Positions 1,664 to 38,276 of a stretch of DNA of 40,172 nt are shown here, in pieces. The stretch's first letter is position 1, and the number at the start of each line of letters is the position of its first letter. A model generated the notes under the pieces. That model was given only the letters and a program-made list of their open reading frames with translations, made no database searches and had not been told where the DNA came from. A program made the translations under genes and the position numbers. Source of the DNA: a virus; the UHGV virus genome UHGV-0207031. One strand, written 5' to 3'.

Positions 1664-1685
1664 ACCAGCTCCCCAGGGGCTGACG
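1664..1685 (+). repeat. 22-bp perfect direct repeat copy 1 (ACCAGCTCCCCAGGGGCTGACG)
   Basis: Identical 22-mer recurs at 1899-1920. Each copy sits 25-35 bp upstream of an ATG. Confidence 0.9.
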
Positions 1686-1709
1686 TTAAGAACAACTTTC
1701 AACAAGGGT

Positions 1710-1880
1710 ATGACGATGTCCATAAATCAATCTTTTGCCAAAGAGTGTCGAGAAGAAGTTCGGTACTACCGTGAGCGGGCAGCGAATGCCAAGCGTAACG
1801 GCTGGGAGTGCTCTCGTGTCACTTACATCAAGTGCGCTCTTTTCAACCGCGCCAACGCCCGTAAATGGGCTTCGATGTGA
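1710..1880 (+). CDS. hypothetical small basic protein (56 aa); the frame is open from 1554, so the N-terminus may be longer
   Basis: ATG 1710 follows repeat copy 1. The upstream in-frame stretch is low-complexity S/A/P/G-rich. Confidence 0.4.
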   Translation: MTMSINQSFAKECREEVRYYRERAANAKRNGWECSRVTYIKCALFNRANARKWASM

Positions 1881-1898
1881 AACAGGTTAAGTTTTAAT

Positions 1899-1920
1899 AC
1901 CAGCTCCCCAGGGGCTGACG
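1899..1920 (+). repeat. 22-bp perfect direct repeat copy 2
   Basis: Identical to 1664-1685. Followed by RBS AGAGAGG and ATG 1943. Confidence 0.9.
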
Positions 1921-4848: not shown

Positions 4849-4855
4849 GGTGATT

Positions 4856-5464
4856 ATGAGCGCCACATTTTATGAGCGACTGGCATCCATCCAGGAGCAT
4901 CTGAATGCGCCAAAGAATCAGTACAACTCCTTCGGTAAATACAAATACCGCAGTTGCGAGGACATCCTCGAAGGAGTTAAGCCGCTACTGAAAGGGCTTT
5001 TCCTGTCGATTAGCGATGAAATCGTGCTGATTGGCGATCGGTATTACGTCAAGGCCACGGCGACAATCACTGACGGTGAAAATAGGCACACAGCAACCGC
5101 TATGGCGCGAGAAGAAGAAAGCAAGAAAGGTATGGATTCCGCTCAGGTTACTGGCGCTACAAGCTCTTACGCTCGCAAATATTGCCTTAACGGATTGTTC
5201 GGCATTGATGACTCCAAAGATGCTGATACTGATGAGCACAAACATCAGCAGAATTCCGCGCCAGCTAGACAATCAAAACCATCCCCTACTCCTGAGCAGA
5301 TCTTGAAAGCATTCACTGATGCCGCAGCAAAAAAGACATCAGTCGATGAGCTTAAACAGGCGTTCGCTAAAGCATGGAAAATGCTCGAAGGTACTGATGA
5401 GCAACAGAAAGCTCAGGACGTTTACAACATTCGAAAAGATGAACTTGAAGGAGTTATCGCTTAA
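4856..5464 (+). CDS. erf: Erf-family single-strand annealing (essential recombination function) protein
   Basis: N-terminal half (YERLASIQEHLNAPKNQYNSFGKYKYRSCEDILEGVKPLLKGLFLSISDEIVLIGDRYYVKATATITDGEN) is near-identical to P22 Erf as remembered. Translationally coupled to ssb. Confidence 0.9.
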   Translation: MSATFYERLASIQEHLNAPKNQYNSFGKYKYRSCEDILEGVKPLLKGLFLSISDEIVLIGDRYYVKATATITDGENRHTATAMAREEESKKGMDSAQVTGATSSYARKYCLNGLFGIDDSKDADTDEHKHQQNSAPARQSKPSPTPEQILKAFTDAAAKKTSVDELKQAFAKAWKMLEGTDEQQKAQDVYNIRKDELEGVIA

Positions 5465-8754: not shown

Positions 8755-9002
8755 AATTGCGGGTAAAATAAAATCCACTTCTGAAAATTCCCTTTCTATA
8801 CAATCCCCTGACATGCCAATTCGATGTATGCAGGGGACACCATTCTATAGTTCGCCACTCTCCGCAGTAGTTCGCAAAATCCCTTGCACAGCAGGCTCTC
8901 AATAAAATACCAGTTCGCCATAGTTCGCAATAGAACGTTGACAGCCGCATACTTCGGCGGGTAAAAAACGAGTAAATGATTTTACCCACCGGAATTTTAC
9001 CC
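8749..9002 (+). promoter_or_regulatory. probable attP: core TGCAGGGGACACCA (8829-8842) with upstream TTCGAT; AGTTCGC[C/A]A repeats at 8849, 8869, 8912, 8922; GGGTAAAA at 8749, 8761, 8959 and inverted TTTTACCC at 8980, 8995 abutting int ATG
   Basis: The core matches the 3' end (T-loop remnant, acceptor, ACCA) of E. coli tRNA-Arg(CCU) argW as remembered. It lies about 160 bp upstream of, and co-oriented with, int (canonical P4-family arrangement). The repeat arrays flank it with 10/20-bp phasing. Confidence 0.55.
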
Positions 9003-10160
9003 ATGCTCACCATCAAACAGATCGACGCAGCAAAGCCGAAAGATAAACCGTACCGGCTGCTCGACAGCAACGGGCTGTACCTTTATGTGCCGGTTACCGG
9101 AAAGAAAGTCTGGCAACTGCGTTACAAGCTCAATGGTAAAGAGAAGGTTTTGACGGTAGGCAAATACCCGCTCATGTCATTGCAGGAAGCCAGAGACAAA
9201 GCTTGGCTTGCCAAAAAGGATGTGTCTGTCGGTGTCGATCCGGTAAAGGCCAAAAAACTGTCAGTCAAAGACAACTCGTTCGGCTCTATATACCAGGAAT
9301 GGTACGAGCACAAAAAACAGGTATGGTCAGAGGTATACAGCACCGAACTGTCACGTATGTTCCAGGATGACATTCTGCCGTTGATTGGCGTGATGGAGAT
9401 TCACGAGATAGAACCAATGCAGATACTGGAGGTGATACGTAGGTTCGAAGAACGTGGGGCAATGGAGCGGGCCAATAAGGCGCGTAGGCGGTGCGGAGAA
9501 GTATTCAGGTACGCGATAGTTACCGGGAGAGCGAAGTATAACCCGGCTCCTGACCTTGCTGATGCCATGAAGGGATACAGGAAGAAGAACTATCCTTTCC
9601 TTCCTGCTGACCAGATACCTGCCTTCAACAAAGCACTATCTGGCTTCTCTGGAAGTATCGTATCAAAGATTGCGACACAGGTTTTGCAGTACACGGTACT
9701 GAGGACAAAAGAACTCCGGTCAATGCAATGGTCGAACGTCGACTTTGAAACCAGGACGATTACGATCGCCGAAGATGTGATGAAGGGGCGTCGCCCTCAC
9801 CTTGTACCAATGTCAGATCAGGTCGTCTCTCTGCTTGAAATGCTGAAGCCTATAACGCAGCCGATATCAAGCTTCGTTTTCGCCGGGCGCAATGACAAAA
9901 CAAAGCCGATCAGTGAAAACGCAGTTCTACTGGTTATTCGCCAGATTGGCTATGAAGGATTGGCAAGTGGCCACGGTTTCCGTCACCAGTTCAGCACCAT
10001 AATGAACGAGCATGAATGGCCCGCAGATGCCATTGAGAAGCAACTTGCGCACGCTAACAGCGGCTCCATTCGTGGGATATACAATCATGCTCAGTACATG
10101 GATAAGCGTCGGGAGATGATGCAGTGGTGGGCAGACTGGCTTGATGAGAAGGCATCATAG
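9003..10160 (+). CDS. int: P4/CP4-57-family tyrosine integrase (DUF4102 N-terminal arm-binding domain plus catalytic domain)
   Basis: MLTIKQIDAAKPKDKPYRLLDSNGLYLYV is a canonical N-terminus. C-terminal H..R..H..Y catalytic region (GHGFRHQF...IYNHAQY). Confidence 0.9.
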   Translation: MLTIKQIDAAKPKDKPYRLLDSNGLYLYVPVTGKKVWQLRYKLNGKEKVLTVGKYPLMSLQEARDKAWLAKKDVSVGVDPVKAKKLSVKDNSFGSIYQEWYEHKKQVWSEVYSTELSRMFQDDILPLIGVMEIHEIEPMQILEVIRRFEERGAMERANKARRRCGEVFRYAIVTGRAKYNPAPDLADAMKGYRKKNYPFLPADQIPAFNKALSGFSGSIVSKIATQVLQYTVLRTKELRSMQWSNVDFETRTITIAEDVMKGRRPHLVPMSDQVVSLLEMLKPITQPISSFVFAGRNDKTKPISENAVLLVIRQIGYEGLASGHGFRHQFSTIMNEHEWPADAIEKQLAHANSGSIRGIYNHAQYMDKRREMMQWWADWLDEKAS

Positions 10161-29591: not shown

Positions 29592-29666
29592 TGGTGCCGG
29601 GCAAAGGAATCGAACCTCTGACGCGCAGCTTACAAGGCTGCCGTTCTGCCACTGAACTAGACCGGC
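29592..29666 (-). tRNA. tRNA-Thr (anticodon UGU)
   Basis: Cloverleaf GCCGGTCTAGTTCAGTGGCAGAACGGCAGCCTTGTAAGCTGCGCGTCAGAGGTTCGATTCCTTTGCCCGGCACCA. Anticodon loop cuUGUaa. One acceptor mismatch (6:67). Encoded CCA. Confidence 0.7.
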
Positions 29667-29671
29667 GAATT

Positions 29672-29747
29672 TGGTGGAACCCGATGGAATCGAACCATCT
29701 CCTAATGCTCTTCAGGCATCCGCGCGAACCATCTACGCCAGAGTTCC
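29672..29747 (-). tRNA. tRNA, anticodon GAA (Phe) by manual fold; unusual G37
   Basis: GGAACTCTGGCGTAGATGGTTCGCGCGGATGCCTGAAGAGCATTAGGAGATGGTTCGATTCCATCGGGTTCCACCA. T-arm GATGG-TTCGATT-CCATC. Anticodon loop cuGAAga. Confidence 0.5.
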
Positions 29748-29754
29748 AGATACG

Positions 29755-29783
29755 AAAAAGCCCAAGGCGTTAACCTCGGGCTT
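29755..29783 (-). terminator. tR'-like terminator downstream of late promoter (aagcccgagg-ttaacg-ccttgggctt + T5)
   Basis: 10-bp stem with one G-U pair, T-run on the minus strand. About 75 nt downstream of the predicted PR'. Confidence 0.55.
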
Positions 29784-29836
29784 GTATTCTTTGTGTCGAC
29801 AATCAAAGCTATGGCGACGATATCAGATTTACATGA

Positions 29837-34028: not shown

Positions 34029-34690
34029 TTAGCCTCCTGCTGCGGTGCTGCTGGAATTTGAGCCCAGTGTGTTACCTGCTTAAGATGTAGGTCATTCCCA
34101 TCGCCATCATCCCAACATGGACATCCATCGCCGAACCAGTCTGCGTAGATACCAATCTGAATGTTTGGCAAGTTTGCTGGGTACTGCTTTCCACTAAAGT
34201 CAGCAGCCAGCACATAATCGCGCTCCGGCATCCGCTCACTGCACGGAATCCACTCCTTCACAGGTTCTGCACCCTGAAGCATGGCGGCGCGGCAGGCGTT
34301 CCAGCCCCACATCGCAGACCATGCATCCTGTCTACCTGTATCTTCCCTGTATCGCTGTGTATTTTGAAATGTCCATTCATCTGGGACTGAATGTGCCAGC
34401 GGTGGTGCTTTGAATAGCGCTGTACAGATTATCTCATGCTCATTGATATCTTCCGGGCTAACATATTTTGATGCATGACTTCGGCTAAGATGCCCATCAG
34501 TGCCACGCTCTCGCTCGTATTTGTCTTGAATAATGTACGCCACAGGCTCCGCTTCGAGCGATGCCAGCGCCAGCTTCATCGCCGCCAGCGCCCGGGCTGC
34601 ATCTTCGTTTACTGTGCCAGGCACAGCATCGCGCTCTTCTTCAAGCTCCGCTATGGTCTTGAGCAGCCATTCTTTAGTAAGTGTGCTCAT
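34025..34690 (-). CDS. DUF551-like phage protein (221 aa)
   Basis: C-terminal ..VTHWAQIPAAPQ motif typical of DUF551. Confidence 0.55.
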   Translation of the reverse strand: MSTLTKEWLLKTIAELEEERDAVPGTVNEDAARALAAMKLALASLEAEPVAYIIQDKYERERGTDGHLSRSHASKYVSPEDINEHEIICTALFKAPPLAHSVPDEWTFQNTQRYREDTGRQDAWSAMWGWNACRAAMLQGAEPVKEWIPCSERMPERDYVLAADFSGKQYPANLPNIQIGIYADWFGDGCPCWDDGDGNDLHLKQVTHWAQIPAAPQQEAK

Positions 34691-36396: not shown

Positions 36397-38276
36397 GTTC
36401 CTTGCCTCACGTTATCGCTGGCCCAGACCTCGTTGTATTCAGAGACCGGCATGTTGGCGATGTAGTTGAATGGGGATGCTGTTTCGGTGGGTAAGAACTG
36501 GTGAGAGTTGGCATCAAGGTAAAGCGGTATTCCGCCCTCCCATCCCTCTCCGTTACGCTGCTTCTCAAGCATAAGGACAGATGCAGGAGCAGCCAGCGCT
36601 TTGCGTTCCTTGTCATCCAGTTCCTCGCCCTGCTGGTCCTTCTGAATGGCTTTCTCACGAACCTTGTTACGCCAGATGATGAACAGGTTATCGGTGAGGT
36701 CGGTTATCGAACCTGAACCCTTAACGTCCATCTTGCCTGTAGGCTTCTCCTCGCTGTCTCCCTTGCGGCTATGGGTGACGAGCAGGACGTGAGTATTGGT
36801 TTTGTTCTTGAAGTCACACAGAGCGTCTACGAAGGCTTTCTGGCCGTTGTAGTCGTCATCCCCTATCCCGCATTTCATCAGGCTGTCGATGATGAACAGT
36901 TCGATGCCGTAACGCTTCCAGGCGTAGGTGAAGATTTCGATCAGCCGATCAGCTTTGGCGGTTCCTGTCAGGCCGAATAGCCATAGCCGGTCATCGTAAA
37001 ACTTGAAGGCTGATTCGATTTCAAGCTGCGGCGGCAGTTTCAGGCAGGTTGACTGCCGGGTCAGACGTTTCAGCAGGATGCCAGGCTTAATCTCCAGCGA
37101 GGCGACGCAGGTCTTAACCCCCTGACGCATGGCTTCCAGTGCCATATGCCCCACCACTTCGGTCTTGCCGTGGCCGTTGACACCGTTGACCAGAGTCAAC
37201 TCTGCCTGGCGGAACGCGAAGTTGTGATTCAGGCTATCCCACGGGCTGTAGAACAGGCTTTGTTCTTTGCCGTAGAAGGCGTTGATGGTGTCCTGATAAA
37301 ACTCCCTGGCGCTGTAAAGCTCCTCCGGATCGAAAAATGATGCCCGTTCCAGATATCCCACGATGTCATCGGAAGAGATTCCAGCCATCAGGCACTCGTT
37401 GATGTCTTTGTGAGGGAGTTTTACCAGGCGGCAGCGGTGCTCACCGAGGCGGGTTGCAATCTCTCTGGCGGCGGTCTGGCCTACTTCATCACTGTCCATG
37501 CTGATCCAGATCTCGTCGAACCGGTCCAGATTGTGATACTCGAACTCAATCCACTGCTGCTTGGCCCCCTTCCCCCCACCAAACGGCACAGACAGCGCCG
37601 GGAAGCCGTACTGGTAGTAACTCATACAGTCGATTTCACCTTCGCAGAGGATGACGATCCGCATGTTCTTTGGGATAGCCTGCCAGCCATACAGACACGG
37701 CTCACAGTCGCCCTCAGCCATGATGACCTTCTTCCCGTCAGGCCGTTCAGTGCTGATGCGCTTAACCTGCAACAGCTCACCGTCACGCTTGTATGGGAAT
37801 GCCAGTGCGTCCAGCTCTCGCTCTCCGTTCCAGACCTTGGCCGCGGCAACTTCGTAAAGCTTGGCCGTCTCTGCGGATATACCGCGAGTGGCAAGATATT
37901 CGATATGCTTTTCGGTTTTGGTGAGGTAACGGGAGATTTTCTTGCGGTCTGGCCGGGAGAATTTCTTTTGCTGCTTAGCTGCGAAGTGGTGATCGTCGTC
38001 CTTGATTCCCAGAAACTCTTTCGCTTCGGTCATCGCCTGGTGTAATCCGCAATCCCTGACAGCTACCCAGAGGTCCAGCAGATCGCCAGCGGTTCCCTCT
38101 GCAAAGTCAGACCAGACTTTCTTACCTGCCAGATTAACCTTGAGGCTCTTCCCTGACTCCCCGTTGATACTGCCTGCCACCCATTCGTGGCTCTCTCGCT
38201 TACCGTTTGGCAGCAGATATTTCGCCACCCTTTCGACCTGATTCCATAGCAGGTCACTCAATTCGCTAGGCGTCAT
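36393..38276 (-). CDS. bifunctional DNA primase/helicase-like replication protein
   Basis: 627 aa. Walker A GVNGHGKT in the C-terminal half. Occupies the lambda-P position downstream of the O-like gene. Confidence 0.65.
   Translation of the reverse strand: MTPSELSDLLWNQVERVAKYLLPNGKRESHEWVAGSINGESGKSLKVNLAGKKVWSDFAEGTAGDLLDLWVAVRDCGLHQAMTEAKEFLGIKDDDHHFAAKQQKKFSRPDRKKISRYLTKTEKHIEYLATRGISAETAKLYEVAAAKVWNGERELDALAFPYKRDGELLQVKRISTERPDGKKVIMAEGDCEPCLYGWQAIPKNMRIVILCEGEIDCMSYYQYGFPALSVPFGGGKGAKQQWIEFEYHNLDRFDEIWISMDSDEVGQTAAREIATRLGEHRCRLVKLPHKDINECLMAGISSDDIVGYLERASFFDPEELYSAREFYQDTINAFYGKEQSLFYSPWDSLNHNFAFRQAELTLVNGVNGHGKTEVVGHMALEAMRQGVKTCVASLEIKPGILLKRLTRQSTCLKLPPQLEIESAFKFYDDRLWLFGLTGTAKADRLIEIFTYAWKRYGIELFIIDSLMKCGIGDDDYNGQKAFVDALCDFKNKTNTHVLLVTHSRKGDSEEKPTGKMDVKGSGSITDLTDNLFIIWRNKVREKAIQKDQQGEELDDKERKALAAPASVLMLEKQRNGEGWEGGIPLYLDANSHQFLPTETASPFNYIANMPVSEYNEVWASDNVRQGT

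Follow-up and report, generated by a model that had tools for sequence, protein, structure and literature searches.

Short conserved sequences flanking genes have been proposed to mediate the exchange of modules among lambdoid phages, according to the account in PMC2327257 that cites Clark et al. 2001, and antiterminator RNAs of the put type are described as RNAs of about 70 nucleotides (nt) with two stem-loops (PMC9378689). Here we relate to these systems a perfect 22-base-pair (bp) direct repeat in the UHGV virus genome UHGV-0207031, a stretch of 40,172 nt that was analyzed at its full length and is referred to as the window. By homology, the window holds the early-left (pL) operon of an HK639-like lambdoid prophage in which a put-like RNA takes the place of N, and the repeat brackets a small gene in this operon. 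We suggest that the 22-mer forms the hairpin at the core of a gene-junction cassette about 54 bp long, which would function mainly as a recombination linker in the early-left operons of lambda-like phages. We regard this reading as rather probable, and our confidence in a specific RNA role of the 22-mer is much lower.

The repeat and its fold

A scan of the window finds the 22-mer, ACCAGCTCCCCAGGGGCTGACG on the + strand, as two exact copies and detects no third copy in the window even at up to three mismatches. The copies and the features around them are:

916-989, + strand: core of a put-like antiterminator RNA of HK639 type, downstream of a pL-like promoter at 860-888
995-1034, + strand: two-helix RNA motif, parent of the 22-mer, at the 3' end of the pL leader, GAAUUAC-AG-AUCGCUUU-UGCG-AGAGCGAU-GC-GUAAUUC
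1491-1663, + strand: long structured RNA resembling the lambda N leader, directly abutting copy 1
1664-1685, + strand: copy 1 of the 22-mer, with the hairpin CAGCUCC-CCA-GGGGCUG at 1666-1682
1686-1715, + strand: initiation spacer belonging to the following gene, TTAAGAACAACTTTCAACAAGGGTATGACG, with the Shine-Dalgarno sequence AAGGG at 1702-1706
1716-1880, + strand: small conserved gene of 54 amino acids (aa), the cassette between the two copies
1899-1920, + strand: copy 2 of the 22-mer, with its hairpin at 1901-1917
1921-1942, + strand: shared spacer with Shine-Dalgarno sequence, GTAAACAAACAGAGAGGTGGGT, before the DUF2528 gene
1943-2308, + strand: DUF2528 (phrog_646) gene, downstream of copy 2

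An earlier reading of the letters alone (the original prediction) had described a perfect 22-bp direct repeat with a distance of 235 bp, and this description is accurate: the spacing is 235 nt from start to start, and as none of 100 dinucleotide shuffles contained any 22-mer match, none is expected by chance. With a single mismatch (G/T at position 23) the repeat lengthens to 26 nt. Copy 1 starts one base past the final pair of the long stem on its left, and copy 2 comes after the stop codon of the 54-aa gene and is followed in turn by the shared spacer with its ribosome site. The original prediction also had both copies followed by TAA-containing spacers, which is correct (GTTAAG and GGTAAAC), and 25-35 bp upstream of start codons at 1710 and 1943. 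The copies do lie upstream of starts, but the first start is at 1716, because the homologues of the 54-aa protein begin at the equivalent ATG; 30 nt thus separate the end of copy 1 from the start codon that follows it, and 22 nt separate the end of copy 2 from its own.

The imperfect dyad noticed in the repeat is real; its best reading is a stem of 7 bp, CAGCUCC/GGGGCUG, which includes one U.G pair and is capped by a CCA loop. Folded as RNA, the sense strand reaches -10.6 kcal/mol (z -2.4 for copy 1 and -1.6 for copy 2) and the antisense strand is weaker (-8.9 kcal/mol, z -0.4). The sequences 3' of the copies, ACGUUAAG and ACGGUAAAC, contain no U-tract.

The junction in other phages

At gene boundaries of other phages, where the original prediction had proposed to look for it, the 22-mer is found once each before unrelated genes: together with GGTAAACAAACAGAGAGGTGGGTATG it is present as a single copy in L002, L003, L004 and L194 (IMG/VR contigs and a Yokenella prophage). 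What lies upstream of these single copies varies as well and includes a P22-type N region, the 3' end of a zinc-ribbon gene and an N-leader-like stem. The exact 20-nt core of the 22-mer is rare, with four IMG/VR contigs, and the single match of a metagenome scan is identical to L002. Counting as a junction every site that has both the shared 3' arm and a family-like 5' arm gives 79 occurrences; they precede about 35 distinct gene starts and follow about 18 different contexts, in 44 combinations. The spacer at 1921-1942 is near-identical before these roughly 35 unrelated genes, and in L017 the DUF2528 gene itself is preceded by another hairpin and the same spacer.

A second line of evidence comes from relatives in which the cassette is absent or has begun to change. 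The locus L034 represents an empty site, in which the leader, the 22-mer (with one mismatch) and the spacer are followed by another gene, as in the window minus the 235-bp cassette. The closest relative, L005/L210, keeps both copies, the second of which has diverged to a perfect 9-bp palindrome (GTCAGCCCCCCCAGGGGCTGAC). In the more distant phages L211-L213, related junction hairpins stand on either side of the 54-aa gene and differ from each other. Moreover, breakpoints of homology coincide with the element, at 1662/1663 for E. coli and phage matches and at 1317/1657 in the comparison with L003. In total, the element has the properties of a mosaic boundary or linker of lambdoid phages, namely unrelated flanks in several genomes, a position at gene boundaries and breakpoints at the element. 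On the basis of the many unrelated downstream genes, the varied upstream contexts and the empty site, we read it as such a mosaic gene boundary; a gene-boundary linker promoting module insertion was among the explanations first offered, and it is the one that matches the junction counts and the empty site.

In L003, L004 and L194 the 22-mer also encodes the last seven codons and the stop (...HFNQLPRG*) of the zinc-ribbon gene. A variant with a 3-nt indel changes this C-terminus to ...HFNSSSLGADSNRNF* and keeps the nucleotide motif, suggesting that the 22-mer is conserved as nucleotides and not as protein.

The usefulness of the searches differed. The contig scan with the 17-nt spacer returned mostly chance matches and two useful enterobacterial loci; nearly all matches of a loose flank-anchored viral scan were chance AT-rich ones; and a loose pattern anchored on the outer-helix strands of the parent motif was too noisy for statistics. 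The palindrome in the second junction copy of L005 (2764-2794), GTCAGCCCC..GGGGCTGAC, looks as if corrected from an imperfect one by template switching. Separately, the 17-mer GTAAACAAACAGAGAGG has dozens of copies in genomes of Bathymodiolus methanotrophic gill symbionts (L153-L209), which suggests that it is an unrelated dispersed repeat there.

A two-helix leader motif as parent of the 22-mer

The motif at 995-1034 follows directly on the put core of the window and in DNA form reads GAATTAC-AG-ATCGCTTT-TGCG-AGAGCGAT-GC-GTAATTC. Its outer helix has 7 bp and its inner helix 8 bp, the two being separated by a 2x2 internal loop, and the inner helix ends in the invariant apex UU-UNCG-AG. Just before the first pL gene of phage HK639, the motif reads ATTTACC-AG-CAGCTCTT-TGCG-AGGGGCTG-AC-GGTAAAC; compared with the window, the loop and two inner pairs are the same, and the remaining six inner pairs and several of the outer ones differ in sequence yet still pair. 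Two further unrelated inner stems are present at other loci. The motif also ends another pL leader of about 230 nt that lacks the put-core sequence (L025 2230-2500).

In a gapless alignment of 13 diverse copies, 93.8% of the cells pair and both partners have changed in 11 of the 15 pairs; in 500 shuffles neither this percentage nor the covariation score was ever reached, and slid controls were at most 50% paired. A covariance model, R1, recovers 69 copies in 98 loci, 38 of them distinct, in which 94% of the cells pair, against at most 51% in slid controls, and 12 of the 15 pairs are doubly changed; this 38-copy alignment was fitted to the model itself, and some of the seed sequences of R1 were chosen by a filter that required pairing of the inner helix. 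The outer helix was never filtered, and the four stem classes were first seen in an unfiltered listing. R1 scores 995-1034 at 51.8 bits (E 2.5e-13) on the + strand and at 18 bits on the - strand.

Together with its downstream spacer, the 22-mer has 27 contiguous nt (GGGGCTGACGGTAAACAAACAGAGAGG) and the AGCTC arm in common with the HK639 hairpin, and the GGTAAAC of the spacer at 1921-1942 is the 3' strand of the outer helix of the parent motif. The CAGCUC/GGGCUG pairs of the inner helix of the HK639-type member are kept in the 22-mer. In place of the invariant apex, in which a U.G and a U-A pair close a UNCG-type tetraloop, the 22-mer has a C-G pair and a CCA triloop, and of the 7-bp outer helix only three to four pairs are left. 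The low R1 scores and the loss of the apex and of most of the outer helix exclude the 22-mers from the motif family, and true membership is ruled out by the scores of the covariance model. Judged by sequence, the 22-mers are trimmed derivatives of the two-helix motif.

A stable hairpin module is present directly downstream of the put core in 95 of the 102 distinct loci, which hints at a functional requirement. We know of no prior description of such a requirement. The two-helix motif after the put RNA is widespread in enterobacterial prophages, where it is unannotated, and it is not in Rfam.

The N-leader-like stem and the bracketed gene

The element at 1491-1663 has a folding energy of -88 kcal/mol (z -5.5), and a 22-bp basal stem (UGGAAUGUUUUGGGAUUGGAUG / CAUCCAAUCACCAAAGCAUUUCA) closes its variable interior. 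Of 5426 complete E. coli genomes, 192 carry unannotated copies that are about 93% identical, and so do 20 phage records; the phages with such copies include IME10, Gally, Stx2c phages and vB_EcoM-ep3. In L001, an E. coli prophage with a lambda-type N, a similar element lies between the nutL boxB and the N start codon, and this slot is the position of the N-leader stem in lambda. The flanks of the element, CTTTGGGGTGTGTG...CACACACCACCAAAGC, are shared by the lambda N leader. From locus to locus, at least five covarying versions of the basal stem enclose interiors of 63-157 nt. The stem of the lambda N leader is reportedly a substrate of RNase III. In the window, the N-leader-like stem is present although no N gene was found there, and in many loci it directly follows the put core. 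Long hairpins like that of the lambda N leader are widespread in enterobacterial prophages, unannotated, absent from Rfam and present even without N.

These data also bear on the proposal that 1380-1710 is noncoding and holds an RNA. The proposal holds, for a reason other than the one given, which was a hairpin at 1465-1482. That hairpin is present, with coordinates one base off (GCCCCGG-TTTGTG-CCGGGGC at 1465-1484); the reason is instead the conserved N-leader-like hairpin. The 108-aa open reading frame (ORF) at 1554-1880 is not conserved, because four homologues, L211-L214, have in-frame stops 3-13 codons before the conserved ATG.

The 54-aa protein is arginine-rich and carries FAKECREEV.YR.RAANAKRNGW..NRANARKWASM; it has no Pfam or PHROG family. 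Five homologues were found, all unnamed, with 55-88% identity and with starts at the ATG equivalent to 1716. The initiation spacer at 1686-1715 is conserved with the homologues L210 and L213. We considered the 54-aa protein as an analogue of N and rejected this candidate, since neither a similarity to lambda N nor a Pfam or PHROG family was found for it.

Alternative explanations

Several observations weigh against a selected linker and against an RNA role of its hairpin. (i) The exact 22-mer occurs in only five distinct phage or prophage contexts outside the window and in one metagenome contig. (ii) The two 22-mers score only 10.9 and 8.7 bits on R1 (E 1.8 and 8.9), within the noise of the window. 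(iii) The element is no better conserved than the adjoining shared coding sequence. (iv) Among about ten natural variant types of the short hairpin, five to six break one pair, two alter the loop only and two keep or strengthen the stem. (v) Recent common descent alone, without selection, could be the source of the 22-mer identity. Because about half of the variants disrupt pairing, they give no clear signal of selection on the stem. The early suggestion of an RNA structure therefore stands for the sense-strand hairpin and is weakened by the natural variants; an RNA role of the short hairpin is plausible.

Observations (ii) to (iv) would be expected if the element were a neutral relic, i.e. 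a decayed remnant of the leader motif that is carried along by recombination and has no RNA or DNA function beyond being shared sequence. We consider this a serious possibility of lesser likelihood. A relic would account for the failure of the 22-mer in the parent-motif model, for the disrupted pairing, for the unremarkable conservation and for the junctions after the same leader that have no hairpin at all. It would be harder to reconcile with the finding that most junctions hold a GC-rich hairpin of some sequence in the same slot, with at least five unrelated stems before the same spacer, with the strengthening of the stem to nine perfect pairs in L005, and with the stability that favors the sense strand.

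Alternatively, the hairpin could be an RNA-protein site, at which a bound factor would act on the two flanked genes, through their translation, their processing or antitermination; candidate binders would be the arginine-rich 54-aa protein, an RNase, or RNA polymerase carrying the put RNA. An apex that is invariant on freely covarying parent stems is typical of a recognized RNA element, the HK639 parent motif lies inside an experimentally annotated putL-like RNA, the put core is followed by a stable hairpin module at nearly all loci, and hairpins flank the 54-aa gene in all five of the lambdoid contexts found. Yet the 22-mer has lost this very apex, along with most of the outer helix; the short hairpin precedes many unrelated genes in phage stretches that show no 54-aa gene; and the 54-aa protein is unlike lambda N or any family. 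We consider such a site unlikely.

The original prediction further offered a DNA-binding site or promoter element duplicated for the co-regulation of two consecutive genes, in keeping with an imperfect dyad that occurs twice upstream of start codons. This explanation is disfavored on several counts. There is no + strand promoter-like hexamer pair (-35/-10 with 16-18 nt spacing) in 888-2300, the genes are within a long antiterminated operon, the T.G position of the dyad pairs only as sense-strand RNA, and most phages have a single copy before unrelated genes. Moreover, the arm-to-arm distance ranges from 3 to 8 nt among homologues, which would destroy the fixed half-site spacing of a dimeric DNA-binding site. 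An operator or promoter is very unlikely.

That the repeat is coding sequence, either as part of the 108-aa protein or as the C-terminus of an ORF at 1441-1683 (...HFNQLPRG*) that ends inside copy 1, we consider more improbable still. Both ORFs are open in the window, and in the three relatives mentioned above the 22-mer does end the zinc-ribbon gene, so that one of the circumstances named at first as speaking against a regulatory repeat, a location inside conserved coding sequence, is partly seen. The in-frame stops in the homologues of the 54-aa gene, the ratio of about six non-synonymous substitutions to one in the 1554 frame between the window and L001, the hypervariable length of the leader interior (63-157 nt) and the lack of family matches for the ORFs argue against coding, as does the indel that alters the overlapping C-terminus and leaves the nucleotide motif unchanged, and it is conservation at the nucleotide level that this variant reveals.

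An intrinsic terminator or a nut-type (boxA/boxB) site, as might be suggested by a GC-rich hairpin in an early operon with several true terminators, deserves hardly any credence, given that no U-tract follows either copy and the terminator scan called neither, that no boxA (CGCTCTTTA-like) lies upstream of the copies, that the 7-bp stem with its CCA triloop is unlike boxB, which is a 5-bp stem with a GNRA-like pentaloop, and that a put-type RNA is present and an N homologue was not found in the window.

A model for the proposed junction linker

Combining the distribution of the junction with its relation to the leader motif, we suggest the following model for the 22-mer as a reusable gene-junction linker. 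Its ancestor, judged by sequence, is the two-helix motif whose usual place is directly behind the put antiterminator RNA, at the end of the pL leader. In the pL transcript, the 22-mer would fold as a small sense hairpin between the end of an upstream module, which is the N-leader-like stem for copy 1 and the stop codon of the 54-aa gene for copy 2, and the A-rich spacer with the Shine-Dalgarno sequence of the next gene. The patch is near-identical among many co-circulating phages with unrelated flanks and therefore offers homology enough to swap, insert or delete accessory genes. Recombination could be carried out by host enzymes or by a phage single-strand-annealing protein, and the phage encodes one of the ERF family (4850-5464). 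From the filled and empty sites and the ERF gene we infer that recombination actually used the patch. There are two perfect copies because one and the same junction stands at both ends of the 54-aa cassette; they may in addition have been homogenized by gene conversion, as the copies in the closest relative differ.

A modest RNA role of the hairpin would be compatible with this linker. The hairpin probably forms in the transcript and may shield the downstream ribosome site from upstream structure. Alternatively, it may cap mRNA ends after processing of the neighboring RNase III-type stem.

With more reserve, and as a possible but rather unlikely extension, the family as a whole (the leader motif and its short derivatives including the 22-mers) could be an uncharacterized cis-acting RNA module of put-type operons. 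If so, it might separate the put RNA on the polymerase from the mRNA of the first gene, as a site of processing or insulation, or it might instead be a third stem needed for full antitermination; the 22-mers would then be small functional versions that set off each accessory gene of the operon. The parent motif and the N-leader-like stems could refine how operons with RNA-based antitermination couple transcription, processing and translation. The repeat itself provides a clean, dated example of how accessory genes slot into a phage early operon.

The operon in the window

The setting of the repeat includes two further genes:

10-714: cI-type repressor gene, with which the window opens, followed by a terminator
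1187-1366, + strand: zinc-ribbon-like small gene, whose 3' end in relatives runs into the 22-mer (...RRQHFNQLPRG*)

The operators and the pL-like promoter at 860-888 are near-identical to those of phage HK639. At 916-989 the window corresponds to the put core of HK639, itself part of the feature annotated as 'putL-like antiterminator RNA', and one helix has compensatory differences; the phage is therefore a lambdoid one with putative RNA-mediated antitermination. Within the put core, covariation across 102 distinct loci links the stretch after stem I with the one after GGCAAT. The put-core region has no Rfam match, and none of the 4227 Rfam covariance models matched anything in 900-2000, either at the gathering threshold or at E up to 5. 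Homology of the window to the zinc-ribbon relatives stops at 1317 and resumes at about 1657. Further genes of the operon are small accessory genes, ral (2419-2619), the ERF recombinase, a Dam methylase and the integrase (8976-10160).

Two observations concern gene starts. At 1405-1431 on the + strand there is a gene-start remnant, GGCGGAGTTATG, in which the ATG (1426-1428) is directly followed by TAA (1429-1431); in L103 and L217 the same sequence is the Shine-Dalgarno sequence and ATG of a real gene. This remnant suggests a deletion that left 1367-1490 noncoding. At 2322-2348 on the + strand there is a second conserved type of spacer and ribosome site, GGGTAACTACAGAGGGTAAGGCGATG, which is related to the spacer after copy 2 and which elsewhere follows the N-leader-like stem and a CCCGCATCAGCGGG hairpin before more than 20 different genes.

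A second family of two-helix motifs (TCATACC..variable hairpin..GTTATGA) is represented downstream of ral at 2633-2671 on the + strand, where it directly precedes the terminator GGCGGCCATCCACCGCC (terminator-like hairpin at 2677-2693). Across loci it has many unrelated inner stems, all fully paired, and copies are also present in HK639, between two annotated terminators, and in HK022 (L324 6449-6490, - strand). HK639 (L325) also has at 37910-37969, after cII in the right operon, a depositor-annotated 'M3-like RNA' with no match to the motif model; among the accessible sources nothing usable was found on 'M3 RNA'. Well past the integrase, at 29595-29833 on the - strand, there are two transfer RNA genes and an isrJ-like small RNA (58.9 bits), so that the right two-thirds of the window may belong to the chromosome of a Salmonella-like host enterobacterium and not to the prophage.

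Comparison with known systems

One close system is the putL-like RNA of HK639 (HM208537, feature 34187-34312), whose 3' end reads CAGCUCUU-UGCG-AGGGGCUG and then ACGGUAAACAAACAGAG. It is here that the 27 contiguous nt and the AGCUC arm of the 22-mer and its spacer are found. The put core proper is different, being a two-stem RNA of about 70 nt that in the window lies 700-900 nt upstream of the 22-mers.

Like the stem of the lambda N leader and the RNase III sites between early genes of T7, the element is a structured intercistronic one just upstream of ribosome sites in an early polycistronic phage mRNA. A hairpin of 7 bp is itself too short for RNase III to cleave, and any link would be positional, with a possible 5'-proximal hairpin after cleavage of the neighboring stem. 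Intercistronic or 5'-terminal stabilizer hairpins, such as the REP of malE-malF and the ompA 5' stem-loop, are also comparable, since the 22-mer forms a small, stable sense hairpin with no U-tract that lies between cistrons and 20-30 nt before a start. The 22-mer differs from these in that its sequence family is phage-specific.

Repeat-bounded cassettes such as those with integron attC sites, and target-site duplications, have in common with this locus a small gene between direct repeats and an empty site in a relative. There is no attC architecture here, and the nearest integrase (8976-10160) is of an ordinary phage type, about 7 kb downstream and near the prophage end. For a target-site duplication, 22 bp is longer than usual. 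Because the flanks of the 54-aa gene differ in other phages, this gene is not a discrete mobile unit.

The lambdoid linker sequences, as presented in PMC2327257 from the work of Clark et al. 2001 on HK620, are also a close parallel. In that account, as here, the sequences are short, lie at gene boundaries between non-homologous flanking genes and are present in a subset of related phages, and the filled and empty sites described here fit homologous exchange. Compared with the linkers as described there, the present junction differs in joining an RNA hairpin, a conserved spacer and a Shine-Dalgarno sequence, in being traceable to a structured leader motif, and in its location, which is the accessory section of pL operons in put-type phages. 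Both boundary sequences and hairpins between cistrons are known kinds of elements; the series observed here, with a filled site with identical copies in the window, diverging copies in a close relative and an empty site in another relative, is unusually clear.

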